Assembly: GCA_036514715.1 (NCBI GenBank)
Contig: DATBWR010000016.1
Span: 42,368 to 106,367, forward strand
Direction of reading: 5' to 3'
Length of the DNA: 64,000 nucleotides
DNA from: Candidatus Nanoarchaeia archaeon
GTDB taxonomy: Bacteria; Patescibacteriota; Microgenomatia; Woykebacterales; RBG-16-39-9b
Shown here: in pieces, positions 107 to 27,389 of the stretch
Layout: the number at the start of each line of letters is the position of its first letter
Numbering within the stretch: the first letter of the stretch is position 1
The notes under the pieces: generated by a model
Told to the model about the DNA's origin: nothing
The model's database searches: none
What the model saw: only the letters and a program-made list of their open reading frames with translations
Translations under genes and position numbers: made by a program

Positions 107-3100
107 TTGGAGATTGACAAAAATTCGTCTAAACGTAGCTTGGTCATTACAATCCACGGCTTCAATAGTTCAGCTACTACTGAGTTCCAAGACATGGCAA
201 GGAAAAGCGCAGGAGAGCCCTCCGGTCCCTTCGACTACATAGCCTACGGCTGGAGTCAGTTAGCAAGCAGTCTCTATTCTGGCACTAAGGTTTCACTTGG
301 ACAAGTTCCTCATCTGGAACAAGCTAGTCGCGTTGGTCGCTGTATCGCTTATGATGTTGCTAACAGCCAATACACATACGTTCATGTTATTGGCCACTCT
401 CTTGGCTCAACTGTAGCAGATTCGTTTTCCAAGAAGTTGTCCGAGTTAGTTGGTGGTTACATTACAGTAGCCCTGACTGGGCTGGATGCTTACACCGGGG
501 TAACTCCGGGAAATTTTGGTAGTGCAGCTGCCTTCACAGATCACTATCTGGCAACTGATGACTACCCACTAACTAACTGGACTTTCGCCAACGCCTGCAA
601 CGTGGACGTTACCAGCCTTAAATTTGATGGTTCCTTCACTGGAGGTTCCCACGGCTGGCCGATTCAATTCTACCTTAAAACTCTTGACAGCCCTCTCCAA
701 GTCAATTTTAAGGGTCTTGGCTTTGCTTACCATCGAGAGTACACCGGAATAACTCCGATCTTTAGCAACCGTTGTCCGCAAGGACAGGTAATTAAACTGG
801 AGCCGTGTCTTCTGAACTGCAGTCCTACGCCTGCCCCTACCCCGACTCCGACCCCCACGCCTACCCCAAACCCCACTCCAAGCCCGGGAACTTCTTGCAC
901 CACTCCGGTAGTAACTCAACCAACTGCCGGGGGGAATTATGCTGCCAACGGTTCGCCGGTGACAATCAAATGGAACACCAATTGTCCATCGAGTTATTTT
1001 GAAATCACCGGTGGGCCGTATACGTCCCCACAAACTGCTGGTTGGAGATCTGGTACCCAATATACGTATGCTCAGGGCTTATGGAGCGGGTCTTACAACC
1101 TTAGAGTTAGAGGAAGGGATTCTCAGTTACGTCAAACCAACTGGAGTACAATTGTTCCCTTTACAGTTGGGAGCTCTTCGCCCAATCCAACTCCGACTCC
1201 TCCTCCAACTTCCGGGGCGTCTTGCAGCACTCCTACGATCACCCAACCCAGTTCCAACGGCAATTTCCCTGAAGGTGGGCCGGTCACCATCAAGTGGTCT
1301 ACCAGCTGTCCCTACAGTTACTTCGAAATCACCGGCGGACCCTACACTTCACCGCAAAATGCGGGTTGGATAACGGCAAAGGAATTTACCTATGCCCAAG
1401 GTCTTTGGCCGGGCGCTTACAGCCTGAGAGTACAGGGTAAAGATTATCAGGGTAGGCAAACAGGATGGAGTTCCACAGTCAACTTTGCCGTCGGCAACTT
1501 CGCACCAACGCCCGCCTGCTCCGGCAATGGGTTGATCTACGATAGTACTGGCCGCTGTGCTGGAGTTTCTGACACAAGTTGTCACAGCCTCCCCTCACTC
1601 GGCTTAAACTCTCTTAAATCTGTCACCCTCAACTCCGGCTGGAGCGTAGTAATTTCTTCTAAAACTGACTGTAGTGATGAGATTGGTCGTTACCAACAAA
1701 GCACGACTATTGATACTGGAGTAGCCTCCGGGGCCAAGGCTATTCGTCTGGAAGCAATTCTCCCCAGCGATTGTCCCGAACTTCCACCAACCGGTGGCAT
1801 CCGCGCTTACCGTGAAGGCGGTTTCCGCGAGGGGGGTGGTTGCCGTAACACTACTCTCTCCCAAGGCGGCATTCCTTCTTTTCCAGCAGTTGGCTATCCA
1901 AACGGCCCCTCCTCCATGAAGTTTTTCGGTGACCATATTGACCGGGCCCAAGTCACGGTTTACCCGGGAGAAAATTACACTGGTACACCTTGTGCAACTT
2001 ACACCCAAGACGTTAGCGACTTCTTAAACTGCAACGGCAAAGTTATTTCTATTAAAGTGGATGCCTTCACACCGCCCACCCAGGCGCTAAATATTGCTAG
2101 TGAGGGTCAGTGGGACCTTGATATGTCCGCAGCTTTGGACAACGACCCAACCACCTGGTCGGGGGTTCCCCACGGCGGAAGCGTTGGTGTAGTTTTCCCA
2201 ACTTCACAAAAAATTCTGGGTCTAGTGGTTCACGACCGACCACCCGACTCCGTAAATCCCAACGGCATCAACAAAATTTACGTTAGTTTTGGTGGCGGTG
2301 TAAGCGGAGGCATGATCATCGATAACATCGACCTAGTGGCTTCCGGGCAACGCTGCGCCATAATAGCTCCAACAACTTCGATTGATGCCAGATGGGTTAG
2401 TATAAAGCTAGCTGATAGTAGCGGCGGTAACGGTTTTTCCGATGTGGAAATTTTCGCTGCCGACGGTGGCACTATCCGTCCAACTATTCCTTGTCCTAAA
2501 GTTTACACGGATGATGCCAAACCAGGTGTTTCCGCCCCACCTAGCAACTGGGTGGAACCAATCTCATCAACTTTGAAAACTCCAGCTTGCGATAGCAAAA
2601 CTCTCATGCTCTTTGTTGCAGCTAACGACAGCTTCTCGGACAAATGTCCTTCCAGTGGAGTGATCGGAGCAACAGAGGCTTTACCTTGCGGACCGTCGGT
2701 TCACTTCAATGGTGCACGAACAATTAATTTGACTGATAGTCCGCAATTAAACTCGGGCAAATTGTCAATAAGCATTTGCGCGAAGATTGATGCTTGGGCG
2801 GCCAGCACTTTCCTACGCAGAGAATTGCAAAACGGGGGGACAACAGACCAGTTTATGTTGGGTACGCGCGACGGTAATTTGTCGGCTCACATTTCCTGCT
2901 ACCCTGATATAATTGGCACAAAGCCTATATCTACTGGTTGGCATGTCTTAGGTTTAATCTTCGATGCTCCCAACGGAACTTTATCAACAACGATTGATGG
3001 AGTAATTGTCGACACGGTGACTAATTCTCCGGGAACCAATTGTCCTAGCTGGGATTCCGGCTATGGACCGTTGGTTTTGGGAAACAACCGCGCCAATGCC

Positions 3101-3148
3101 GATTACTTTACCGGGGACATTGCCTGGGTTAAAATCGCTACTCCCTAA
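107..3148 (+). CDS. Large multidomain surface/secreted protein: N-terminal alpha/beta-hydrolase (lipase-like, GHSLG nucleophile elbow), PT-rich linker, two tandem ~100-aa beta-sandwich repeats, discoidin (F5/8 type C)-like domain, C-terminal LamG/concanavalin-like domain
   Basis: 1013-aa ORF with motifs ITIHGF and GHSLGS. The TPTPTPTP linker, the duplicated CTTPVVTQP...FEITGGPYTSPQ modules, the ALDNDPTTWSG...VEIFA discoidin-like stretch and the FTGDIAWVKI LamG-like C-terminus are all visible. The frame is open to the window edge with a TTG start at 107, so the true N-terminus is uncertain and no signal peptide is seen. Confidence 0.75.
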   Translation: MEIDKNSSKRSLVITIHGFNSSATTEFQDMARKSAGEPSGPFDYIAYGWSQLASSLYSGTKVSLGQVPHLEQASRVGRCIAYDVANSQYTYVHVIGHSLGSTVADSFSKKLSELVGGYITVALTGLDAYTGVTPGNFGSAAAFTDHYLATDDYPLTNWTFANACNVDVTSLKFDGSFTGGSHGWPIQFYLKTLDSPLQVNFKGLGFAYHREYTGITPIFSNRCPQGQVIKLEPCLLNCSPTPAPTPTPTPTPTPNPTPSPGTSCTTPVVTQPTAGGNYAANGSPVTIKWNTNCPSSYFEITGGPYTSPQTAGWRSGTQYTYAQGLWSGSYNLRVRGRDSQLRQTNWSTIVPFTVGSSSPNPTPTPPPTSGASCSTPTITQPSSNGNFPEGGPVTIKWSTSCPYSYFEITGGPYTSPQNAGWITAKEFTYAQGLWPGAYSLRVQGKDYQGRQTGWSSTVNFAVGNFAPTPACSGNGLIYDSTGRCAGVSDTSCHSLPSLGLNSLKSVTLNSGWSVVISSKTDCSDEIGRYQQSTTIDTGVASGAKAIRLEAILPSDCPELPPTGGIRAYREGGFREGGGCRNTTLSQGGIPSFPAVGYPNGPSSMKFFGDHIDRAQVTVYPGENYTGTPCATYTQDVSDFLNCNGKVISIKVDAFTPPTQALNIASEGQWDLDMSAALDNDPTTWSGVPHGGSVGVVFPTSQKILGLVVHDRPPDSVNPNGINKIYVSFGGGVSGGMIIDNIDLVASGQRCAIIAPTTSIDARWVSIKLADSSGGNGFSDVEIFAADGGTIRPTIPCPKVYTDDAKPGVSAPPSNWVEPISSTLKTPACDSKTLMLFVAANDSFSDKCPSSGVIGATEALPCGPSVHFNGARTINLTDSPQLNSGKLSISICAKIDAWAASTFLRRELQNGGTTDQFMLGTRDGNLSAHISCYPDIIGTKPISTGWHVLGLIFDAPNGTLSTTIDGVIVDTVTNSPGTNCPSWDSGYGPLVLGNNRANADYFTGDIAWVKIATP
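890..1510 (+). repeat. Two in-frame tandem copies (~300 nt each) of a domain-coding module, preceded by a PT-rich low-complexity linker (820-893)
   Basis: The protein-level repeat TSCTTPVVTQPTAGGNY...FTVGSS aligns with ASCSTPTITQPSSNGNF...FAVGNF. This is coding, not CRISPR. Confidence 0.8.
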
Positions 3149-3209: not shown

Positions 3210-3455
3210 TTGGAGGAGAGGTTGCAACCAAATGAGGTACCGTGCGTTCGCTGTGGAGCAACAGCACAGGAGCAGATTATCGCTGTCGTTTTCAAAATCG
3301 AGGACGACGAGGTAGAGGAGATTCCTCCTGCCCTAACTAACGGTTATCACTGCAGGCACTGCAACATTGACTTCCTTTCGCCAGAACAGGAGGCTGAGCT
3401 AGCAGAGAGTCTCGAGATCGAGGCCTATGCGATCATCTACATTGAGGAGGTCTAA
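3210..3455 (+). CDS. Small acidic zinc-ribbon-like protein (CxxC...CxxC); the start is more likely the TTG at 3222, after a GGAGGAG RBS
   Basis: 81-aa ORF with CVRC and CRHC pairs and an acidic composition. A terminator hairpin lies downstream. Confidence 0.45.
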   Translation: MEERLQPNEVPCVRCGATAQEQIIAVVFKIEDDEVEEIPPALTNGYHCRHCNIDFLSPEQEAELAESLEIEAYAIIYIEEV

Positions 3456-3466
3456 CTTACCAACGA

Positions 3467-3501
3467 GCGGTTCGTTCGCAAGAATGAACCGCTTTTCTTT
3501 T
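3467..3501 (+). terminator. Rho-independent terminator
   Basis: GCGGTTC...GAACCGC stem followed by TTTTCTTTT. Confidence 0.6.
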
Positions 3502-3512
3502 AAAATTGAAAT

Positions 3513-3543
3513 AAAAAAGGCAGGGTTAAACGGTGACCCTGCC
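3513..3543 (-). terminator. Rho-independent terminator for the minus-strand gene ending at 3526
   Basis: GGCAGGGT/ACCCTGCC stem overlapping the stop codon, with a T-run (A-run on the plus strand at 3513-3518) downstream on the minus strand. Confidence 0.5.
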
Positions 3544-3819
3544 ATTAGAGGATGGTGCATATGTTCCCTGATTCGGTTTTTCACCCACAATCCGACGCTG
3601 CGCCTCGTCTATCTCACGGCGGGCAAAGACAATTTGGTTGTAAATGTCCCCGCACCAGCTGTCACCCTGGGCTCGTCTGCTTTCCTGAAACTCTTCCCAT
3701 TCGGGGCCTTGCATTTCTGCTTCCAAAGTCTTGACCAACGCTCCCAGTTGACGCAGCTGTTCCAAGGCAACTTGGTGCGACATCCGGTTGAATTCCTTTA
3801 CCGCGACGTCTCCTTGCAT
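3526..3819 (-). CDS. Hypothetical charged/coiled-coil small protein
   Basis: 97-aa ORF with a strong AAGGAGG RBS 7 nt upstream of the ATG and its own terminator. Preferred over the overlapping plus-strand ORF 3427..3852. Confidence 0.55.
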   Translation of the reverse strand: MQGDVAVKEFNRMSHQVALEQLRQLGALVKTLEAEMQGPEWEEFQESRRAQGDSWCGDIYNQIVFARREIDEAQRRIVGEKPNQGTYAPSSNGRVTV

Positions 3820-3883
3820 TCCCTTCCTCCTTTGGGAAAATTATACTGCTAAAACAGGGAAAAGGCAAGTTTGCTTGCTTGGT

Positions 3884-4957: not shown

Positions 4958-7900
4958 TTAGAAATTTGTAGCTTTGTCTATTTCTTTCATTAGCTTTTCT
5001 GTCTCTGTTAGTGCGACTACTATCTTTTGGTAATGTTCAATATCTTCATTAGTTAAAACTCTGCCCTTGCGGTCTTTGAGCCATTTTTGCGCTGGTTGGT
5101 AACCACCGATATAGAAATTCCAAGCAATTTCAGGAACTTTGCCAAAATATTGCTCTGCATTGATAAATACTTTATCATCCTTATATATTACTTTGTCGAA
5201 AATATCTGATCCGGTTACCGGATAAGTAGTAACGAATTTATTTACCTTGGGAGATTCAAGTAAGTGCAGTGAACGTAACTCAGTACCAAAAGCAACAAGT
5301 TTTTTGAAACTTTTGACGTCCTTGGGATATGGCACACGCGGAAAATCAATTTTCAGGAATTCTTTGTATTTCTCTCGATAACTTGGCGAGTGCAAAACTG
5401 CGTAAATATAATCAAATATGTCTTCTGGTGAAACTTTGCCAACAATTTTTTCTATTTCATCAATAATTTCTTTTTTGAGATTTGCTTCTCGTGTACCATC
5501 TTCTGAATAATTATAAATTGGGAATAGATTATAAGGAGCAAAGGGTTGCGAACTCATGTCTGTAATAGAATTTGTCATATAGGAAGTAAAATGTTTTCCT
5601 GCTGCATACTGCTTACAAGCAATTATTGCATAGTTACTTCTATACATACTCGACATAACTTTTTTACTTGCTCCTCCTCTACCAATTTCTATTAAATTGG
5701 GCTGATACCATATCCATCTATAGTCGAACGGTCTGTACATGTAAACATACTCACGATAATCTTTGTCATTGTTATTTAACAGTTTTCCTTTTTCCCTTTC
5801 AGTATTCCAATACTTCCCATCCTTAATTTCCAGCTTTCTTTGAATTTCGCTTATACTGGTTTCTTTTCTTAAAACGTCTAGTTTATCTAACAGCTTCTTT
5901 TTTTCGAAATTAGTCAATAATTTATCATTATTAGTTTTTACACCATTACCATTTACAATAAAAATTTCTTTTAACGACGGAAAACTTTCATATTCCTTAG
6001 ACGAGCTGAAATTTTTAGGAACAAAGAAATAATAAGGCGATGAATAATTCAGCTTTTCCCATTTAACTTCTCTCATATCATTTTTGTTTAGTGCGTTGAA
6101 TTTATCTGCTTGCTTTCCATAAAGATCTGAGTGATATACCTCACCCAAACCTTTCTTTTCACTTTCTTTACGGAGAAAAATATTTATGGAGACACCTTGT
6201 TGGATATCAAAAACATTTTTATCTTCACCACCATCAGGGGCTTTTTCTTGAATGTTGGAATTACCATGTAGATCCAATATATAAATTTCATCGAAAGTTT
6301 CAAGTAGATGCTTTCTCATCTGGCGGTGAATAACCCCACTTATAAATGAGTTATTAGTAATCATTGCTACAATCCCACTTCCATTTTTCTCAACAAAATG
6401 TTCTGCGAAACGGATGAATTTTATATAATCATCTGAGAGGGGTTGAATATTTCTTTCATTGAGATTTGTTTTGTAATCCTTGGTGAGATTCTGTATCCAC
6501 TCACCTTTATTGGAGGAACTCACACTGTACGGCGGATTTCCGATAACTACCATAATTGGTTTTTCATTTTTTATTTTCGATGCTTCTTTTGCTTCCTCTG
6601 CGATACTTTCAGCAAAACCAAATGAAAACAGATCTTGTTGGGCTGGGCTTTCTTCGAGAGAATTGGTGAGATAAATTCCAAGTCGTTGGTTGAAATATTT
6701 AAAACCAGTTTCTCTAAAGGCCATGCTCAACTTCAAGTGGGCTATTGTATACGGTGTCATCATTAGCTCAAAACCATGCAGTCGTGGAAGCAAGTCGTTA
6801 TGAACATAGGTTGGCCAACGACCTTTTTGCCCACCTTTAAGTAAATGTGTATAGATAACACGAATAACCGCGCTAATAAAAGTACCTGTTCCAGCAGCTG
6901 GGTCAAGAATTTGAACTTTGTGTAGGTTAGAAGCTGTCTTTGACGTGTCTGCCAAACCTGTGGCAAGACCAAACTCTTTCTTGAGTAGGAAATCGACTGA
7001 ACGCACTATAAAATTTACAACAGGAAGAGGAGTATAGTAGGCTCCCATCTTTTTGCGGAGGTTTGGGTCGTATTCCTTCAAAAAATCTTCATAAAAATGT
7101 ATAACGGGATCTGGGCCCTTTTGAGTTTTACCACTTGATTCTTTTTTAAAATACTCTTCCATAAGGGCGGCGACATCAGCATGAGAGAAAACTTCACACA
7201 ATTCATTGACGATATATTCAAGTCTTTTGTCGAAGTCAGGCCCAACTATATGATCGAAAAAATGTCTGAGAAGCGGATTCGATTTTGGGATTAAGTCACG
7301 AGCTTCCTGCCTAGAAAAGTCTTTTTCCGTATCATCATGATAGCGAGCAATGAAAAGTCCATAAACGAGAGTTTGTGCGTACATATCAGCGAAAGAGTCT
7401 TTCGTTAAATCATGAACAAGAAGTTTTTTAATTGTTTCGTAGACCCGAACAAGCTCAGTATTTTTATCTGATTCGGTAGCAAGGAATTGCTTTACGTTGT
7501 CTCGAATTCTTTGAGCTTTACCTCCCATAATCTTTGCTAGATGCTGACCAGACCGTATAGGTTCTTTTTGTGATTGGGTAAAATCAAGAAGAGTTTTAGT
7601 GAGAAACTCAAAGTTTTCTGGGAAAGGTTTAGTTGTTCGACTTTTAAGGTCGTAATCGCCTATTTTTATTGGTTCTCCATAGTGAATACCGTTTCTATAA
7701 AAGCGAAACTCCAGATAGTCTGTAAGAACAAGGTTGGTATAGCCAAAATACCTAGTCATCTGCTCAGATTTTTCGACCTTATCTAGAGAGACACCAATAT
7801 CTTTTGCCTCAATATACAAAATGGGTATATCGCCTTTGAGGACAACGAAATCAGGTTTGTTACCTTGCACAGCCCGAGCATCATGAAATATGTGCAGACC

Positions 7901-8035
7901 GCCAACTGATTCAAAAACATTTTTAAGTAGAGCCTCAAGATCGGCACGGTAGCCCATCTCGCTGGTTTCTGGGTGAGAGAATTTTGTGGCGGTTGACTGA
8001 ATATAATTTTCTAAAATACCTTGCACATTATTCAT
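4958..8035 (-). CDS. Type IIL/IIG single-chain restriction-modification enzyme (MmeI family): N-terminal PD-(D/E)xK nuclease plus gamma-class N6-adenine methyltransferase plus C-terminal TRD
   Basis: 1025 aa. Motifs PDFVVLKGDIPILYIEAKD (D...EAK nuclease motif), GAYYTP, ILDPAAGTGTF (motif I) and VIGNPPY (motif IV). AT-rich composition. Confidence 0.85.
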   Translation of the reverse strand: MNNVQGILENYIQSTATKFSHPETSEMGYRADLEALLKNVFESVGGLHIFHDARAVQGNKPDFVVLKGDIPILYIEAKDIGVSLDKVEKSEQMTRYFGYTNLVLTDYLEFRFYRNGIHYGEPIKIGDYDLKSRTTKPFPENFEFLTKTLLDFTQSQKEPIRSGQHLAKIMGGKAQRIRDNVKQFLATESDKNTELVRVYETIKKLLVHDLTKDSFADMYAQTLVYGLFIARYHDDTEKDFSRQEARDLIPKSNPLLRHFFDHIVGPDFDKRLEYIVNELCEVFSHADVAALMEEYFKKESSGKTQKGPDPVIHFYEDFLKEYDPNLRKKMGAYYTPLPVVNFIVRSVDFLLKKEFGLATGLADTSKTASNLHKVQILDPAAGTGTFISAVIRVIYTHLLKGGQKGRWPTYVHNDLLPRLHGFELMMTPYTIAHLKLSMAFRETGFKYFNQRLGIYLTNSLEESPAQQDLFSFGFAESIAEEAKEASKIKNEKPIMVVIGNPPYSVSSSNKGEWIQNLTKDYKTNLNERNIQPLSDDYIKFIRFAEHFVEKNGSGIVAMITNNSFISGVIHRQMRKHLLETFDEIYILDLHGNSNIQEKAPDGGEDKNVFDIQQGVSINIFLRKESEKKGLGEVYHSDLYGKQADKFNALNKNDMREVKWEKLNYSSPYYFFVPKNFSSSKEYESFPSLKEIFIVNGNGVKTNNDKLLTNFEKKKLLDKLDVLRKETSISEIQRKLEIKDGKYWNTEREKGKLLNNNDKDYREYVYMYRPFDYRWIWYQPNLIEIGRGGASKKVMSSMYRSNYAIIACKQYAAGKHFTSYMTNSITDMSSQPFAPYNLFPIYNYSEDGTREANLKKEIIDEIEKIVGKVSPEDIFDYIYAVLHSPSYREKYKEFLKIDFPRVPYPKDVKSFKKLVAFGTELRSLHLLESPKVNKFVTTYPVTGSDIFDKVIYKDDKVFINAEQYFGKVPEIAWNFYIGGYQPAQKWLKDRKGRVLTNEDIEHYQKIVVALTETEKLMKEIDKATNF

Positions 8036-20692: not shown

Positions 20693-21586
20693 ATGACCGA
20701 CATTCGCCAATCACCCTATTGGTCAGAATTTATGAAAGAGTTGGGATGGGGAGTCGAAAAAATTGGCAAAAAAGATCAAAAACAATTTGTTTTTCTTAAA
20801 AAGATCCCTCTTTTAGGAACGGTTTTAAAATCCCCCCGAATTGCCACTCCTATACCCTTTACCGAGATCGACGAACTAGCACAAGAAAGTAAGGCCGCCT
20901 TTGCCAAAATCGAGCCAAACCACACTAGTTCAGACAAAAGCCTATTTGCGGCTCTAGCCCAAAACTCCTTTTTACCAGAACGTTGGTCTTTGCATCCAAC
21001 GAAAACTATCATCATTGATCTAAGAAAAGGCGAAAACGAGCTTTTGGCAAATATGGAAAAAGATACTCGCTACAGCATCCGGGCGTCCCAACGACGGGGA
21101 GTTCGGGTGGTCAAAAGTAGTGACCTGGAAAGGTTTTTAAAGCTTTATCGGCAGACTGCCAAACGGCAGCGATTTTGGATTGCCGAAGCAGAGCTGAGGC
21201 TGTTGTGGGAGATTTTTTCTAACGAAGGCAAAGCTTTTATCTTAATTGCTCAGTGGAATAAAGCGGATATCGCTGGCTGTTTAATTTTGCATTACGACAA
21301 AAAAGCCTATTATTACCACGCTGCCTCGATCCGCCATTTGGGCGAGCTTTTTGCTCCGTATCTCTTAGTCTGGGAAGCAATGTTAAAATCCAAGGCCTTA
21401 AAGTTGAAGGAGCTGGATCTGGAAGGAATTTATGATCCGCGTATCCCCACAACCTCTAAGTGGCGCGGCTTTAGTCATTTTAAAAAGGGTTTTCGTGGGG
21501 AAGAAGTAGAGCTGGCCGGTAGTTTCGTAAAAACTTACAACCCCTTGGCAAAACTACTTTTCAAATTCGGCAACTTTTCTTTTTGA
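20693..21586 (+). CDS. FemAB-family peptidoglycan bridge-formation aminoacyltransferase-like
   Basis: DTRYSIRASQRRGVRV and GNAT-fold-like features consistent with the FemABX family. Confidence 0.55.
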   Translation: MTDIRQSPYWSEFMKELGWGVEKIGKKDQKQFVFLKKIPLLGTVLKSPRIATPIPFTEIDELAQESKAAFAKIEPNHTSSDKSLFAALAQNSFLPERWSLHPTKTIIIDLRKGENELLANMEKDTRYSIRASQRRGVRVVKSSDLERFLKLYRQTAKRQRFWIAEAELRLLWEIFSNEGKAFILIAQWNKADIAGCLILHYDKKAYYYHAASIRHLGELFAPYLLVWEAMLKSKALKLKELDLEGIYDPRIPTTSKWRGFSHFKKGFRGEEVELAGSFVKTYNPLAKLLFKFGNFSF

Positions 21587-21620
21587 AGCTACTGTCCCAA
21601 TTGTCTTGAACCTATAGTTG

Positions 21621-21649
21621 TTGACTTTTCCTAAATTTAGTGCTATAAT
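21621..21649 (+). promoter_or_regulatory. Near-consensus sigma70 promoter (TTGACT-17-TATAAT) driving the GC-rich island gene
   Basis: TTGACT at 21621-21626, 17-nt spacer, TATAAT at 21644-21649. An AAGGAGG RBS at 21663-21669 and a GTG at 21678 follow. Confidence 0.6.
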
Positions 21650-21677
21650 TTTCGCCAAAAGTAAGGAGGGAGAAACG

Positions 21678-22676
21678 GTGGTCGTGTCAAACTCAGAAGA
21701 GGGCCTTCTTGATCGAATCGTTAGGATCGCTTTTGAGGAAACGGCGCCGGAAATCCACGCTTTAGTGGTCCACCGTTTCCCCGATGACGATGCATGGCTC
21801 AGCACCTGGATAGCCAGGAAGTTCATTCCCAGGGCAGCCAACGCCCAACTCGTTTTCGTGAGGTCGGGGGAAAAACTGCCTGGAACCGAAGATGATCCGC
21901 ATGTGCTCCACTTCGATACCGGAGGGGGCGAATACGACCAGCACAACAGGAGCCTGGAAAAAACCTGCAGTGCTGTTCTTCTGGCCAACAGGTTAGGGGT
22001 TCAGAATGACCCAGGTCTAACCGAGCTACTCAAGATGGCGACCGATGTGGACAACGTCAGGAAGCTGCCTCCGACCAGCATTCACTACGCTATCGAAGGC
22101 TACGCCCGGCTCTTCCAAAAGGAAAACGAAGTTGCCTGGGAAAAGGTTCAGGAGCGGGTGTTTGAGCTCTTCAACATTGTCTACGGACAAGAAGCCCAAC
22201 GAGCTCGAGGAAAAAACGATCTAGAGAAATTCGGGCGGTGGACACAGCACCCTAACGGTGCCAAGGTTTGCTTTCTTCCCTATCACCCAAACACTCGCGA
22301 AGCTGCTTTCGCAGCGGGAGCAACTGTGGTGATTTGGACTGAAGCTTGCAAAGCGCCTTTCAGGGGTCGGGTCCAGATCGGTATTCAACGTAGCCGTGAC
22401 CACGAGTACCTCAAACTGAGGAGTGTGGCCTGGTCGCTGCGGAAAGCTGAGGCCTTGCAACGCACCCTTCAGCTGGGTGAGCAAGAGCTGGGGGCGGTGG
22501 GAGAAGATTCCAACACTCATTGGTTCCTACACGACAGCTTGGGCTTTGTTTGCAACGGCAGCCGCACTCACCCGCTGGAGAGAGAAGAAGAGTTTAGTTT
22601 GCTCAGTCTGAATCAGGTTCTAAATCTGGTAAACCGCGAGGTAGCTTCAATGTCGCTTGCTCCTGCAGGCAGATAA
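21678..22676 (+). CDS. Divergent DHH-superfamily phosphoesterase-like protein (NrnA-like motif HRFPDDDAWLS...YDQH); GC-elevated foreign-looking gene
   Basis: Start assigned to the GTG 8 nt after the AAGGAGG RBS; the ORF track extends it to a TTG at 21618. Motif II resembles the NrnA H-x-x-PDxDAxGS motif. Rough hand counts give 53-58% GC. Confidence 0.35.
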   Translation: MVVSNSEEGLLDRIVRIAFEETAPEIHALVVHRFPDDDAWLSTWIARKFIPRAANAQLVFVRSGEKLPGTEDDPHVLHFDTGGGEYDQHNRSLEKTCSAVLLANRLGVQNDPGLTELLKMATDVDNVRKLPPTSIHYAIEGYARLFQKENEVAWEKVQERVFELFNIVYGQEAQRARGKNDLEKFGRWTQHPNGAKVCFLPYHPNTREAAFAAGATVVIWTEACKAPFRGRVQIGIQRSRDHEYLKLRSVAWSLRKAEALQRTLQLGEQELGAVGEDSNTHWFLHDSLGFVCNGSRTHPLEREEEFSLLSLNQVLNLVNREVASMSLAPAGR

Positions 22677-22761
22677 GGAGGCTTCGGTCAGAGGAGTGAA
22701 AATCCACAAGATTTTCGCCCCTTCTTTATTTTCAAATTCTTCCCTCTCTTAAATTAAAAGC

Positions 22762-22790
22762 AAAAAATCCATCTCTTTTTGAGATGGAAA
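22762..22790. terminator. Bidirectional hairpin terminator between convergent island genes
   Basis: AAAAAAT CCATCTC TTTTT GAGATGG AAAG. Confidence 0.5.
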
Positions 22791-22903
22791 GTGTTGGGAA
22801 GGTTTTTTGCAACCAGACTCGTTTTCGAGTACTTCCCCTGATTCTTATTCTATTTTTGGAGTTCCTTGCGTCAGTAATGTTCGCCGATCACCCTCTGTCC
22901 TTT

Positions 22904-23791
22904 CTAGCTGTAGCGACCGGGCCCGCGGTTGCTCTTCCTGCTATTGCGCGGTGCCCCTCGCTTCTCGATCCTCTTTTTGCTTCGCGGAGTTGGTTCCGAC
23001 GGAACGTACTCGACTACCTGATGGTCTGCGAGAAGCCGCACCATTTCCTCAGCCGCACCATCAAGCGGGTCTGACGCTGCAGATTGGTGACCGTCGCAGG
23101 TAACCTGACCGTTAGCAACGGACAAGCCACCACGGTGAGGTGTGCCCCGAACAGGACAGCAGTAGTGTCCTTGGCAAACCACACCGCCTTCCACCACCCT
23201 TAGGTTCCCCCAGTGCTTCTCTGGTGAGTTCACTACGAGGCAGGATGGAGCGGGTGTGTTTGCGGGGTTATGACCCTCGCAGTGCCACCTACCGTTCACC
23301 TTCACGAGCTTCGCACCAGAGTGAGGCGTGCCGTTCTGAACCACACAGCGAACGCTTGTGGTCACCCGAGCCTTGACTCCGGAAACGATGCCGCTCTGTG
23401 GATCCGAGGCTTTTTTGGTTGCCTTGAACCCTTTTCGGCAGCGGTCGCAATACGGATTTTCACCTTCGGCGACTGGCTTCGTCACGCGCTCACACGTAGC
23501 GAAGTTGGTACAGTCGACATAACCCCTACTTCTGAGCTTCTGCACATAGCAGGAACCGCAGTAAGGGTCTAACCCTGTCCGTAGTTTCGTCAAGCGTTTG
23601 CACTTGGCGTAGTTGACACACTCAACGTACCCCTGCTTCCTCAGCTCCTCTTCGAAGCATGGTTGGCAAAGGGGACCGTTGGGATCGGCGGGGTTCTTGC
23701 CGCACTTGGAGCACATCTTTTCGCTTGGAGTCTCGGCTGAGACAGCCTCGCTCACCTTGGTTGTTTTTGCGCTTGACTTATGTGCTGCCAC
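22904..23791 (-). CDS. Cysteine-rich protein with internal repeats (3x CxxC...GYV[ED]C.N[YF]A.C and 2x GTPHxG...NG...C[ED]GH) and a basic C-terminal tail; function unknown
   Basis: 295 aa. GTG start with an AAGGAGGG RBS. GC-elevated. The repeats are visible in the translation. Confidence 0.6.
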   Translation of the reverse strand: MAAHKSSAKTTKVSEAVSAETPSEKMCSKCGKNPADPNGPLCQPCFEEELRKQGYVECVNYAKCKRLTKLRTGLDPYCGSCYVQKLRSRGYVDCTNFATCERVTKPVAEGENPYCDRCRKGFKATKKASDPQSGIVSGVKARVTTSVRCVVQNGTPHSGAKLVKVNGRWHCEGHNPANTPAPSCLVVNSPEKHWGNLRVVEGGVVCQGHYCCPVRGTPHRGGLSVANGQVTCDGHQSAASDPLDGAAEEMVRLLADHQVVEYVPSEPTPRSKKRIEKRGAPRNSRKSNRGPGRYS

Positions 23792-24446
23792 TTTGAAAAT
23801 CCCTCCTTAAAAATGGGGCTAACTAACGTGTGGAGCGCTATTTGGTTGTTAAGGACCTCCTTTAGGCGACTATTATACTCCTTTCAAGCTAAATCTAATC
23901 CTCACGAAGCTGGCTTAGCAAGGGGAAAGAATTCACCTCCTTTTTTGACCTCTCACCAAGCCAAGTTCGTATTGATTAAGTTTTTAAAGATAGAGACGGG
24001 CGGTGAGGGGTTTTCCGTTCAGCATATAGCTTACTTGTACTTTCCTCACCACCCAGAGAGTTTCTCGAAGACTAACCTCGCGGCGGGGTCTTCGGCTAGG
24101 TCGACGTAGCTCTGGAGGCTAGCGCCGGCTGTAGGATGGGTTAGCGGGTCCGCTTGTACTCGATGGCCTTCTCCAGTTCGAAGAAGATGATGCCGTCGAT
24201 GACCCAGTATGGCCGATCCGAAACCTTGCGCTGCACTTTATTTTCCTTTCGCTACTGTACAACCAGTTTTGTAGCTAATACTATAACATATTTTTGTCCT
24301 TTTGTCAAGTTCTATAGGACGTTCTTGAGAGCTAGATCAAGAACGTCCTGCGCTTTGCTACGCAAAGCTAGGGTCTATAACTAAATCAATATTTTGTAAC
24401 CCATAGTTAGAGTCTGTTTCCTTCTGTGGATTAGGGCGTAAGTGGA

Positions 24447-27389
24447 CTATTTATTAGCTAGAGAGAAGGGGCAAATGGAGTTGTATGCACAGTAATTACA
24501 GGCCGGTACTCGGCCAAAATACTTGGGGTTAGCGGGGAAATTATTGTTTTGTAAATTCTGCTTTATGTTTTGGGAAACTTCAATTATTTCGTTTTCTGTT
24601 TTTTCTAGAGCTTCTTTTTCCGGCTCATAACCGCCTGCTAAACCAGAGTCCAAGTCGTAAATGCCAACAAACTCTGGAATAACTTGATAATTTTTATAAT
24701 AGCCTAAAGTATAGACTTTAAGTTGGATGCTTTTCTTTGCATCTTTTTCCAAATTTTTGTGGGTGCGGCCTTCGGTTGATTTAAAATCAATAATTCTTAC
24801 CTTTTCCCCGTCAACATCAACCCGATCAAAACGGCCGCTGACTAAGACTTTCGTCTTTCTACCGTTTAAATTGAAGCGAAAAGGTTTTTCAATAAAAGTC
24901 GGGATTTCTCTCGACTTTTTCTCCCGGTTCCAAAAATTTCTAATGACTTCTTTAGCTTGGATAAGTCGCTTTTCCTCGTGCTCAGCAGTCAAAAACCCCT
25001 CGGAAATCCAAGCATTTTCCAAAACTTCCAGCGTCGACTCTAGGTTAAGTGTCTTACCGACCATTTTCTGGCGGTAGAACTCTGCGACAGCAGCATGGAG
25101 CGCGTAGCCGTAAATTACGGTGTGGTGACGTAAAATCGGTACCCGTAGCACATGGGCGTAACGGTATTTGTAAGCGCAAGTTTCGTAATCATCAATTGAA
25201 GCTTGGGTTAAGCGAATAATTTCCGACTCTCTTTTAGCGCTAAAAGGTGTCGGTGGTCTACCGGCAAACTGTTCAATTTTTCCCCGAACGGTCTGTTGTT
25301 GGAGACTCTCCTCCATCTTAGGCCGATCTAAGGCTTCTAAAACAAACGGAGAAATTTTTTTAAAGCGCTTGCCTCCAACGTCTTTGGACCAAGTGTAGTA
25401 AAGCCGGCTCTTGGCGCGGGTTGTGCCTACATAAAAAAGCCTACGTTCTTCTTGAACATGGTAGTCACCTAACGGTAAAACTTCCTTGATAAGTACTTCT
25501 GGAAGAGAAATCGGCTCACCCCGCTCTCGGGAAGGAAAATGATCAGCATCTAGTCCGACCATAAAAACAACTTTAAACTCTAAGCCCTTGGCTGCGTGCA
25601 CAGTCATTACGTTTACTGCATTTTGTTCCGGGTCAGCCTCTGCGGTGGCTGGATCGTCTCCGGCCAAACGCATAATTTCAAGGTAGTCAATAAAAGCGCG
25701 AACTGACTCATTTTGGGAAAGGTCAATAAACTCTTTAATTTTGTCGAAAAACTTGGCAATATTCTGGATTTTTACCTCTGCCTCCACACCTTGTTTTTCC
25801 AGTTTCTCTAGGTACTTAGTTCGTTGAATAAACTCGTACAAAACTTTACCCACGTTTTCACGGCGTGATAAATCAAGGAATTTTTCGACATCGGTGTTTA
25901 TTTGCTTGACTGTCTCTCGGCCCGCCTCTGAAACCTGTATTTCTTCAAGTTTTTCGAGATTTTTAAAAACATAGTGCAAGGTTCTTGAGCGTCGTTTGGC
26001 TAAATCCATAGCAACTATACAGTCCTCTGGTGGTAAATTGTAAACAACGCTCGCAGCCAAGTTGTAGAGGTTGAGGCTGTCATCAAAATTGGAAATTGCA
26101 GTCAGAAACGAGATTAAAACTTTAACTTCCGGCTGGTTGTAAAGACCTGAGAAACCGACAAATTTATGAGGAATACCCTTTAAGTTTAGCGCTCGCAAAA
26201 ATGGGTCAGCTTGAGAATTAGCCCTGATCAAAATCGCAGTTTCTTTAAAATCTAACTTGCTTTTTGTAAGTTTTTCAATTTCACTAGCGACAAAATCAGT
26301 TTCCTCAGATAAGGTTGGGCAGGTCACTAGCGTTGGTCCCTCTCCAAGCACGCTGCGGCCGGCAGTAAGTTTTTTATTAATTTTATTCTTTACTTCCAAA
26401 CGGTCCGGATCGTTAAAACGTATTAGACGGTAGCCAGCATCCAGTAAATTCTGAGTAGAGCGGTAATTGGTGGCTAAAACAATTTGTTTAGACTTCTTAA
26501 AAGCCTTTTTGAACTCTAAAATATTGGAGATTGCCGCTCCCCTGAACTTGTAGATACTTTGGTCATCATCCCCAACCACACAAATATTTTGGTGGGACTT
26601 GGCTAGCAGCTTGACCAGTTCGTTTTGGGCGTAGTTGGTATCTTGGTATTCATCCACTAAAATATACTTAAACTTCTGTTGGTACTCTTTGAGAATTTTA
26701 GGTCGCCTCCGAAAAAGGTTTAGAGTCATCAAAACTTGATCACCGTAATCAATTTTTCCGGCAGCTGTTTTCAACCGCTCGTATTGCTCATAAACTTTAC
26801 CTAACTCCTCCTGCCTCTTAATTTCTTCCAAAAACTCCCTCTTTTCCTCTGCACTTTTGGCTTTTAACTTTTGACTTTTTAATTCTCTAATATATTTTTG
26901 ATACTGTTCGGGTGAGACGTCTTCATCCTTACAACGACTAATAAAGGCCAAAATAGCCTCGATAAATTTAGTCGGGTTGGCGAGCGGTCGGTAATAGTTA
27001 AGATCAAAGGCAAATAAGTTTTGTTGGAAAAATAAATTTGCTTGGGGACGGGTCAAAACTTGGAAATCTGGCGGTAAACCCAGATCCAAGGCTTTTTCCC
27101 TTAAGATCCTGTCGCCGAAAGCGTGGAAAGTGGAGATCCAAGTGTCGATATAACCATAAGGTACCAGAACGTCAACTCTTTCCTCCATTTCGGCCGCGGC
27201 TTTTTCCGTAAAAGTAAGCCCCAGAATTTCCGAAGGTTTAGCTAATTTTTTTTCAATGATGTAGGCGATGCGTCGGGTGATAACGCTAGTTTTTCCAGTC
27301 CCAGCTCCAGCGATAATCAACAACGGGCCTTTGGTAGTGGTTACAGCCTCTTTTTGTTGCTGGTTCAAGCCTTTAAGAATATCTGCCAT
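24447..27389 (-). CDS. UvrD-family helicase fused to a C-terminal PD-(D/E)xK (RecB/Cas4-like, 4-Cys) nuclease domain
   Basis: IIAGAGTGKTSV Walker A. C-terminal IIDFKS...QLKVY nuclease motifs and a CNYCAYNSICPF cysteine cluster. 980 aa. Confidence 0.85.
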   Translation of the reverse strand: MADILKGLNQQQKEAVTTTKGPLLIIAGAGTGKTSVITRRIAYIIEKKLAKPSEILGLTFTEKAAAEMEERVDVLVPYGYIDTWISTFHAFGDRILREKALDLGLPPDFQVLTRPQANLFFQQNLFAFDLNYYRPLANPTKFIEAILAFISRCKDEDVSPEQYQKYIRELKSQKLKAKSAEEKREFLEEIKRQEELGKVYEQYERLKTAAGKIDYGDQVLMTLNLFRRRPKILKEYQQKFKYILVDEYQDTNYAQNELVKLLAKSHQNICVVGDDDQSIYKFRGAAISNILEFKKAFKKSKQIVLATNYRSTQNLLDAGYRLIRFNDPDRLEVKNKINKKLTAGRSVLGEGPTLVTCPTLSEETDFVASEIEKLTKSKLDFKETAILIRANSQADPFLRALNLKGIPHKFVGFSGLYNQPEVKVLISFLTAISNFDDSLNLYNLAASVVYNLPPEDCIVAMDLAKRRSRTLHYVFKNLEKLEEIQVSEAGRETVKQINTDVEKFLDLSRRENVGKVLYEFIQRTKYLEKLEKQGVEAEVKIQNIAKFFDKIKEFIDLSQNESVRAFIDYLEIMRLAGDDPATAEADPEQNAVNVMTVHAAKGLEFKVVFMVGLDADHFPSRERGEPISLPEVLIKEVLPLGDYHVQEERRLFYVGTTRAKSRLYYTWSKDVGGKRFKKISPFVLEALDRPKMEESLQQQTVRGKIEQFAGRPPTPFSAKRESEIIRLTQASIDDYETCAYKYRYAHVLRVPILRHHTVIYGYALHAAVAEFYRQKMVGKTLNLESTLEVLENAWISEGFLTAEHEEKRLIQAKEVIRNFWNREKKSREIPTFIEKPFRFNLNGRKTKVLVSGRFDRVDVDGEKVRIIDFKSTEGRTHKNLEKDAKKSIQLKVYTLGYYKNYQVIPEFVGIYDLDSGLAGGYEPEKEALEKTENEIIEVSQNIKQNLQNNNFPANPKYFGRVPACNYCAYNSICPFSLANK

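Follow-up and report, generated by a model that had tools for sequence, protein, structure and literature searches.

The bacterial regulator CarD of Myxococcus xanthus carries four AT-hooks. Its HMGA-type C-terminal domain binds DNA (PMC2919716), and the eukaryotic HMGA2 has three AT-hooks (PMC4482583). The silencers H-NS and Lsr2 also read AT-rich DNA, through AT-hook-like RGR motifs that contact the minor groove (PMC4466236, PMC8476142), while MucR, a silencer that also binds AT-rich DNA, has a zinc finger (PMC7710501; for silencers, PMC4466236 and PMC8476142). Here we describe a protein of 295 residues, encoded in a 64,000-nucleotide stretch of contig DATBWR010000016.1 (referred to as the window, and numbered from its first nucleotide), which combines an array of Cys/His units with a basic C-terminal tail. 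The gene is genuine and under selection, its repeats and the conservation of their ligands are real, and it occupies a syntenic position in the related genomes that could be read. Proteins of this overall kind, a small array of metal sites with a basic tail, are familiar, and at the level of sequence the gene is nearly an orphan that brings two new small types of Cys/His repeat; its function is one that we infer. Bacteria of the Candidate Phyla Radiation have tiny genomes with many unannotated genes, and to our knowledge almost nothing is known of how their DNA is organised and regulated.

The gene is a complete open reading frame (ORF; 22904..23791, minus strand) that runs from a GTG start to a TAG stop codon. 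An earlier reading of the window from its letters, here called the original prediction, had placed the coding region at the right coordinates and overlooked its strand: translated on the plus strand, 22904-23791 contains many stops, and the minus strand holds the single 295-residue frame. A Shine–Dalgarno sequence, AAGGAGG (23802..23808, minus strand), lies 10 nt 5' of the GTG. Further upstream is a sigma-70-type promoter, TTGACA-17-TATAGT (24280..24308, minus strand; 11/12 matches plus an extended TG), whose equivalents are found directly past the helicase stop codon in related loci, and a hairpin with a T-run resembling an intrinsic terminator (22768..22788, minus strand) is located 116 nt past the stop codon. 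The identical protein was called on eight contigs from independent samples in ENA, Logan and JGI. In codon alignments of the C-terminal half among homologs, the ratio of nonsynonymous to synonymous substitution rates (dN/dS) is approximately 0.1-0.6, and differences at third codon positions (0.56-0.64) exceed those at first and second positions (0.29-0.55), so that the frame is translated and constrained. The original prediction had named a non-coding frame with neither homologs nor conservation as the case that would undo it, and this is countered by the Shine–Dalgarno sequence, the promoter, the terminator, the dN/dS values and the homologs of the C-terminal half.

The protein contains 19 Cys and 9 His residues and has an isoelectric point (pI) of 9.3 and a net charge of +19. 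Its parts are given here as residues, followed by window coordinates, all on the minus strand. The N-terminal half contains 12 Cys, all of which lie within three units of the form C-x2/5-C...C-x2-C. Finger 1 (residues 27-45, 23657..23713), CSKCGKNPADPNGPLCQPC, has the spacing C-x2-C-x11-C-x2-C (C27, C30, C42, C45). Finger 2 (residues 58-81, 23549..23620) reads GYVEC-x5-C-x13-DPYC-x2-C, with its cysteines at C58, C64, C78 and C81, and finger 3 (residues 94-118, 23438..23512) reads GYVDC-x5-C-x14-NPYC-x2-C, with C94, C100, C115 and C118. The latter two belong to the only two full copies of GYV[ED]C.N[YF]A.C...[DN]PYC..C, at residues 54-89 and 90-125, and their alignment scores 88, where shuffled sequences average 21 (z = 15, with none of 2000 shuffles equalling it). 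Three N-terminal copies of one such repeat had originally been proposed; the three [DN]P.CxxC knuckles are indeed present, but only two GYV units exist and the first copy is a CxxC-x11-CxxC finger. Together the three Cys4 fingers form an N-terminal arm of 147 residues with a net charge of +9.

The C-terminal half contains three further units with the consensus C-x6-8-H-x-G-x10-12-C-x2-H, which we refer to as CHCH units. Unit 1 (residues 149-174, 23270..23347) reads C-x7-H-x-G-x11-C-x2-H and its ligands are kept in two homologs, P0002 and P0008; unit 2 (residues 184-209, 23165..23242) reads C-x8-H-x-G-x10-C-x2-H, and unit 3 (residues 212-235, 23087..23158) reads C-x6-H-x-G-x10-C-x2-H. Pairwise shuffle z-scores among the units are 8.6, 7.7 and 3.8, and the middle one is the more divergent. 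The repeats noticed originally in this half are real, though they had been counted as two, with residues 184-209 overlooked. The units are followed by an acidic, partly helical linker (residues 238-265, 22997..23080) with a net charge of -5, and an acidic helix matching it is found in the homologs too. The K/R-rich tail described in the original prediction is confirmed as residues 266-295 (22907..22996), TPRSKKRIEKRGAPRNSRKSNRGPGRYS, which include 11 Lys and Arg, have a pI of 11.9 and carry the motif PTPRSxKx[IV]xxRGxxR. This tail contains KRGAPR and NRGPGR and no GRP, such that the core of an AT-hook is present in degenerate form (RGAP). Neither a hydrophobic N-terminus nor a membrane segment was found in the sequence of the protein, and because of this a cytoplasmic location is its best-supported reading.

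Relatives were sought with a word index of 5.8 billion clusters, by exhaustive HMMER over 1.84 billion representatives, and then by profile search. The word index returned only the window protein itself. Exhaustive HMMER gave P0002 (143 residues, E = 8e-12) and P0004 (partial), both of which match the C-terminal half alone, and the profile search contributed P0008 (151 residues) and P0009. These four, of 104-162 residues, are all of the relatives that share only the C-terminal half; searches of GTDB species genomes, JGI metagenome contigs and IMG/VR added no more family members. The N-terminal half has a different set of relatives. The finger 1 region (residues 18-51) matches repeated CxxC-x9-11-CxxC[FY]xE fingers in P0003, P0005, P0006 and P0007 (E 8e-7 to 5e-4). 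It is alone in this among the N-terminal units, since finger 2, with its GYVEC unit, and likewise finger 3 had no relatives in the exhaustive search. The short homologs begin M[AV]HPEA[HQ].C, which makes the 147-residue Cys4 arm unique to the window lineage. The two halves of the protein thus differ in their evolutionary history, a point absent from the original prediction.

What is conserved in the family is concentrated on the presumed ligands and the tail. Among 13 CHCH units taken from six proteins, the C, H, G, C and H positions never vary, in agreement with the array of small Cys/His metal-site modules that had been foreseen from the sequence. Across the five-protein alignment all metal ligands of units 2 and 3 are invariant, including H193, G195, C206 and H209 in unit 2, and the tail motif P-x2-PTPRS-x-K-x-[IV]-x2-RG-x2-R is likewise invariant in 5/5 proteins. 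Three of the four homologs (P0002, P0004 and P0008) have tails reading QRGRPRVKS(K/N)RR, in which basic residues flank a canonical RGRP AT-hook core, and the corresponding core in P0009 is RGRD. Even so, the CHCH proteins diverge quickly, with 27-34% identity to the window protein, whereas the adjacent helicase retains 63-70% in the same genomes.

No known family accounts for the protein. Pfam gave nothing significant for the window protein, its fragments or its homologs, nor did NCBIfam for the window protein; PHROGs returned only matches at E >= 0.05, of unknown function, and PADLOC had no match for the window protein or for the neighbouring 332-residue protein described below, with one chance-level match for P0008 (E = 0.023, 11.8 bits). 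Searches of PDB with phmmer and with profiles of the C-terminal half and of a single unit gave chance-level matches only, among them one to the eIF5A 'PGKHG' segment (E = 1.3), which was set aside as chance. An AlphaFold2 model of the full protein, built from the five-sequence alignment, has a predicted local distance difference test score (pLDDT) of 46, which is too weak for fold assignment, that of the originally suggested treble-clef-like fold included; in it helices begin at three of four CxxC motifs (C42, C78, C115) and a beta-hairpin is predicted before each C-x2-H. A model of the single CHCH unit from 12 unit sequences (pLDDT 66) likewise predicts a beta-hairpin ending at the second Cys and a short helical turn bearing the last His. 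For neither model did Foldseek find anything in PDB at E < 1, and its matches to RING, LIM and RBR structures (E > 1) were not considered meaningful. At the sequence level the family is novel and not assignable to any known family, as had been said when the protein was first noticed; the Foldseek comparison and the search of metagenomes for homologs and their neighbourhoods that were then suggested gave, respectively, no match at E < 1 and four relatives of the C-terminal half, three of them with the same helicase upstream. No characterised domain family covering all of the repeats was found.

The reading that we favour, and to which we give about an even chance, is that of a soluble, basic, modular protein with around six metal sites, most probably for zinc, that most likely binds nucleic acid. 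Its fold would be held by three Cys4 sites in the N-terminal half and three Cys2His2 sites in C-H-C-H order in the C-terminal half, as suggested by the placing of the 12 N-terminal Cys in three units, the invariance of all 13 CHCH units and repeat z-scores of up to 15. The family core would be the C-terminal half, in which three CHCH hairpin units are followed by an acidic helix and then by the short basic tail. The tail may enter the narrow minor groove of AT-rich DNA (the genome is 57% A+T) or grip structured RNA, the zinc modules could supply extra contacts or protein–protein interfaces, and the 147-residue Cys4 arm gained by the window protein might add binding surface. Binding of nucleic acid is plausible because of the pI of 9.3, the net charge of +19, the pI of 11.9 for the tail, the tail motif in 5/5 proteins and the RGRP core in P0002, P0004 and P0008. 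That the protein binds metal at all, which metal this is, what nucleic acid it targets and whether it serves as an architectural or regulatory factor are all matters of inference.

Several points weigh against this reading. There is no homology link from the protein to a characterised DNA- or RNA-binding domain, and Pfam AT_hook, searched with isolated tails, gave no match at E <= 10, a result limited by the very short model and by HMMER filters that drop weak matches. The window protein has an interrupted GRP core (RGAP) and P0009 reads RGRD at this point, from which it follows that the motif shared by all the tails is no AT-hook in the strict sense; it could instead be a partner-binding or targeting peptide. 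Confidence in the AlphaFold2 models is low (pLDDT 46 and 66) and they have no structural match by Foldseek. The Cys/His clusters could hold iron–sulfur or other metals rather than zinc, and the fast divergence of the CHCH family in a variable, GC-rich locus fits a role in conflict as well as it fits a housekeeping architectural one.

Among the alternatives, the first makes the protein a partner or autoregulator of the RNA that precedes its gene. A conserved non-coding leader or small-RNA element lies at 23780..24089 on the minus strand, with a structured core at approximately 23890-23982, and it occurs between the helicase stop codon and the gene that follows, with its own conserved promoter, in the window, in the related loci L005-L007 and in L010-L012; a pattern scan found it in three JGI contigs also. 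Its positions in these loci are L005 3209-3534, L006 737-1038, L007 595-904, L010 8958-9177, L011 8589-8813, L012 8251-8549, L071 930-1151, L072 7663-7837 and L074 430-654. By nhmmer the window copy scores E = 3e-62 and the loci outside the model 3e-27 to 7.5e-10; the element was absent from the viral contigs searched and had no Rfam match. Its predicted structure has a 17-bp closing helix that is 91% paired and has seven pairs with compensatory changes among ten distinct sequences, and in all comprises 27 pairs in which 89.5% of cells pair, against at most 56% in slid-partner controls. Two further features lie within the closing helix. One is a GNRA hairpin, which the window and L010 lack; the other is the sequence A(A/G)GGAGGTGAA (GGAAGG in L005), which hardly varies, is complementary to the 16S ribosomal RNA 3' end and is left exposed by an alternative pairing found by RNAalifold. 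Short GC-rich ORFs lie between promoter and RNA core in the window (24138-24236, minus strand), L006 (546-731) and L007 (423-593). Those of L006 and L007 are alike (E = 9e-6), and for the window ORF (32 residues, VQRKVSDRPYWVIDGIIFFELEKAIEYKRTR) no counterpart was found in the relatives. Upstream of the leader promoter, between it and the helicase stop codon, is an inverted repeat whose 13-bp arms match perfectly across a gap of 8 nt (24316-24349; AGGACGTTCTTGA / TCAAGAACGTCCT), which may be a terminator for the helicase or an operator.

According to this alternative the protein would work with the adjacent RNA of about 300 nt, either in a ribonucleoprotein or by feedback on read-through, as ribosomal proteins do on their leaders. 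The idea draws on the presence of a structured RNA with its own promoter 5' of the CHCH gene in every locus, and on the terminator-like hairpin that L005-L007 keep between RNA and gene, so that expression may need read-through. RNA binding is common for basic tails and small zinc modules, and residues 69-96 bear a sub-threshold resemblance to ribosomal protein L36; however, the L36 matches are not significant (E = 0.4-0.7). The same RNA is also found with no downstream gene (L011, L072) or with unrelated genes (L010, L071, L074), which implies that the RNA does not need the CHCH protein. In the empty loci L011 and L072 it spans from promoter to intrinsic terminator, and thus looks like a stand-alone small RNA. 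We consider a partnership of this kind unlikely.

A second alternative, in our view also improbable, sees the protein as cargo of biological conflict, acting in phage defence or anti-defence or as an effector against the host of a presumably episymbiotic bacterium, with the basic tail as a DNA-targeting or export signal. In the comparison of synteny, which took in the loci of P0002, P0008 and P0009 and left out the P0004 contig, the CHCH gene lies directly 3' of the same AddB-like helicase with UvrD and PD-(D/E)XK domains, on the same strand, in 3/3 homolog loci read, and in L005 it is followed by a convergent FemAB gene, as in the window. The slot between the structured RNA and the convergent FemAB gene has a GC content of 0.53-0.64 in genomes of 0.39-0.44, and extends over approximately 21650-24250 in the window, 8500-10200 in L010, 7950-10498 in L012, 3460-4000 in L005, 1178-2047 in L071 and 1-394 in L074. 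At third codon positions the GC content (GC3) is 0.63 for the CHCH gene and 0.59 for the 332-residue neighbour, in contrast to 0.30-0.47 in 29 of the 30 other tabulated window genes (the exception being 3427-3852, at 0.56), and the L005 homolog likewise stands out, at 0.61 against 0.435 for its genome. The contents of the slot are hypervariable, with different GC-rich orphan ORFs in the closest genomes. L010 carries a 278-residue ORF with a CxxC-x13-CxxCF finger, L012 a 142-residue ORF with a single CHCH unit next to an ORF of at least 396 residues that is cut short by the locus end, and L071 and L074 have unrelated GC-rich ORFs; the slot is empty in L011 and L072, whereas in more distant Curtissbacteria it is occupied by a methyltransferase-like gene and shows no GC anomaly.

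This variability between helicase and FemAB, the raised GC3, the far faster evolution of the CHCH family compared with its neighbours and a Type ISP restriction enzyme elsewhere in the window would all suit such a role. Yet no significant PADLOC or PHROG match and no viral relatives of the protein were found, no integrase was recognised, the variable-slot ORFs that were scanned gave no Pfam family, and a search for direct repeats on either side of the slot gave none of convincing length. The three readable CHCH loci are syntenic despite saturated dS, which argues for vertical persistence and not for repeated import; the high GC of the slot persists even with a syntenic gene and saturated dS. 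The window neighbours are housekeeping genes, encoding phosphoglycerate kinase (PGK), triosephosphate isomerase (TIM), an aminoacyl-tRNA synthetase (with tRNA-synt_1 family domains), RmuC, FemAB and LytR. The CHCH gene is chromosomal and lineage-specific. Helicase identities of 53-62% to named Curtissbacteria metagenome-assembled genomes, and of 66-70% to the closest such genomes, identify the organism as Curtissbacteria-like (Patescibacteria). A virion or structural role, which had been among the original proposals, finds no footing in a gene set amid housekeeping genes of a Curtissbacteria-like chromosome, with no relatives in IMG/VR and no significant PHROG match.

A broader version of the same idea would take in the RNA as well. 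Here the RNA and its promoter would mark a previously undescribed hypervariable slot in a Curtissbacteria subclade, in which GC-rich orphan genes are gained, shuffled or replaced; the CHCH/AT-hook proteins would be new metal-dependent nucleic-acid binders deployed in symbiont–host or phage conflict, and the RNA would serve as a platform for expression or recombination. As a whole this seems to us quite unlikely.

The gene that shares the slot in the window encodes a protein of 332 residues (21678-22676, plus strand). It is convergent with the CHCH gene, has its own promoter (21621-21649) and terminator (22696-22718) and has no Pfam match itself. Over 40 metagenomic homologs (42-56% identity) belong to its family, and PF09828 (chromate-resistance-like) occurs in a few of them. 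A functional link between this gene and the CHCH gene was considered and rejected, the two being convergent, separately equipped with promoter and terminator and of separate families, with the neighbour absent from L005.

The third alternative replaces nucleic-acid binding by metal handling or redox chemistry, with the protein as a zinc buffer or chaperone or as an iron–sulfur or copper carrier. It takes its cue from the 19 Cys and 9 His at regular ligand spacings and from the occasional annotation of the 332-residue neighbour's family as chromate resistance (PF09828). The C-x2-H and H...C-x2-H arrangements also bear a superficial likeness, which no match backs, to the ligand sets of Rieske and CDGSH proteins. 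But Pfam gave no match to the Rieske, CDGSH, metallothionein or ferredoxin families, and the first box of the units is C-x6-8-H and not the C-x-H of Rieske proteins (PF00355). The 332-residue neighbour is absent from L005 and has its own signals on the opposite strand, and the strong basic charge and conserved basic tail would be left unexplained. We regard metal handling as very unlikely.

That the ORF is a spurious or decaying frame, arisen in GC-rich DNA where stop codons are rare and where several overlapping ORFs of 50-100 residues exist in other frames, is effectively refuted by its strong Shine–Dalgarno sequence, promoter and terminator, its ligands kept at the protein level, the third-position excess with dN/dS of 0.1-0.6, and internal repeats that are significant at the protein level. 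The GC-rich stretch was also considered as a large non-coding RNA and this was rejected, since Rfam gave nothing at E <= 1 in 21500-24600 (its sole match in the window, a tRNA-Cys, lies outside this interval) and selection at the protein level is clear.

A few other features of these sequences deserve mention. The Type ISP restriction-modification enzyme (1025 residues, 4958-8035, minus strand) has Type_ISP_C, N6_Mtase, Eco57I and MmeI_Mtase domains and is encoded in a stretch of low GC, with a GC3 of 0.30. A second region of raised GC (0.49-0.51) covers 107-3148 and 3427-3852, both on the plus strand, and the leader RNA was not found there by nhmmer. The former is a 1013-residue ORF that begins with TTG and matches Laminin_G_3 and lipase-like families weakly, and the latter is a 141-residue ORF with a GC3 of 0.56 and no family. 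Inside the homologous helicase of L005, positions 2131-2231 give a sub-threshold match to RF03531 (41.7 bits against a gathering threshold of 65.2, E = 3.5e-4), a Clostridioides difficile small RNA 'included into helicase gene', which probably reflects conserved helicase coding sequence.

If our favoured reading of a metal-dependent nucleic-acid binder holds, the protein would define two new small types of metal-binding repeat, the C-H-C-H hairpin unit and the GYVxC-x5-C...PYCxxC unit, and its family would be a rare bacterial case of a eukaryote-style AT-hook tail. Should it bind AT-rich DNA, it would be a candidate chromatin or silencer-like factor for its lineage. The locus, which joins a conserved unclassified RNA to a fast-exchanged GC-rich slot, possibly also offers a view of how genes are gained and turned over in reduced genomes.

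To set the family against known systems, we consider first the Cys/His units and then the tail. The CHCH units differ from classical C2H2 fingers, which have the order C-C-H-H and the spacing C-x2-4-C-x12-H-x3-5-H; the units here read C-x6-8-H-x12-13-C-x2-H and have no Pfam match. In the N-terminal half the nearest likeness is to A20 fingers (PF01754), which have the spacing C-x2-4-C-x11-C-x2-C, and the arrangement C27-x2-C30-x11-C42-x2-C45 of finger 1 agrees with it. The NP...G.LC..C[FY] features of finger 1 resemble those of A20 fingers as well. Pfam did not report zf-A20 for the whole protein (E <= 1) or for the N-terminal fragment (E <= 10), and this family had no match in the finger 1 relatives. 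In those relatives Pfam gave DZR_2 and DUF7685 below cut-off and a marginal ZZ match in P0005 (22.0 against 21.4 bits, with no single stretch passing). Fingers 2 and 3 depart from both the A20 fingers and the finger 1 relatives, as C-x5-C replaces the first CxxC and they have no relatives of their own. Residues 69-96 align with bL36m, including a CxxC-x12-C spacing and basic residues, at 11.2 bits against a cut-off of 26 for L36 (PF00444; E = 0.41) and E = 0.67 for bL36m in PDB. The last ligand of the window protein in this alignment is a Cys at +5, whereas L36 (C-x2-C-x12-C-x4-H) has a His at +4, and the AlphaFold2 model (pLDDT 46) predicts a helix where L36 has a strand. This sub-threshold similarity to L36 is taken as a chance or convergent resemblance.

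For the tail, the closest likeness is to HMGA and CarD, in that P0002, P0004 and P0008 end in PQRGRPRVKS(K/N)RR, a basic-flanked RGRP placed beside an acidic stretch (PMC2919716, PMC4482583). By the usual description of an AT-hook (PF02178), a G-R-P core with Lys/Arg flanks, three of the five family members have one and the window protein does not. The family tail differs from HMGA and CarD in having one hook at the extreme C-terminus, the core of which is degenerate in two members (RGAP in the window protein, RGRD in P0009), and its invariant motif, PTPRSxKx[IV]xxRGxxR, is longer than an AT-hook. Unlike that of CarD, it is joined to Cys/His modules and not to the CarD/CdnL RNA polymerase-binding domain. 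With H-NS, Lsr2, MvaT, Rok and MucR/Ros the protein shares small size and basic character, and these proteins read AT-rich DNA, while the genome here is itself AT-rich; it has no sequence similarity to any of them and no recognisable oligomerisation domain, and its units are in tandem and in C-H-C-H order, in contrast to the single CCHH-type finger of Ros/MucR. The comparison with silencers is one of functional analogy only. Because no test of family membership gave a clear positive outcome, HMGA and CarD, the AT-rich DNA readers H-NS and Lsr2 and the zinc-finger silencer MucR are best regarded as analogies of mechanism and not as families to which this protein belongs.

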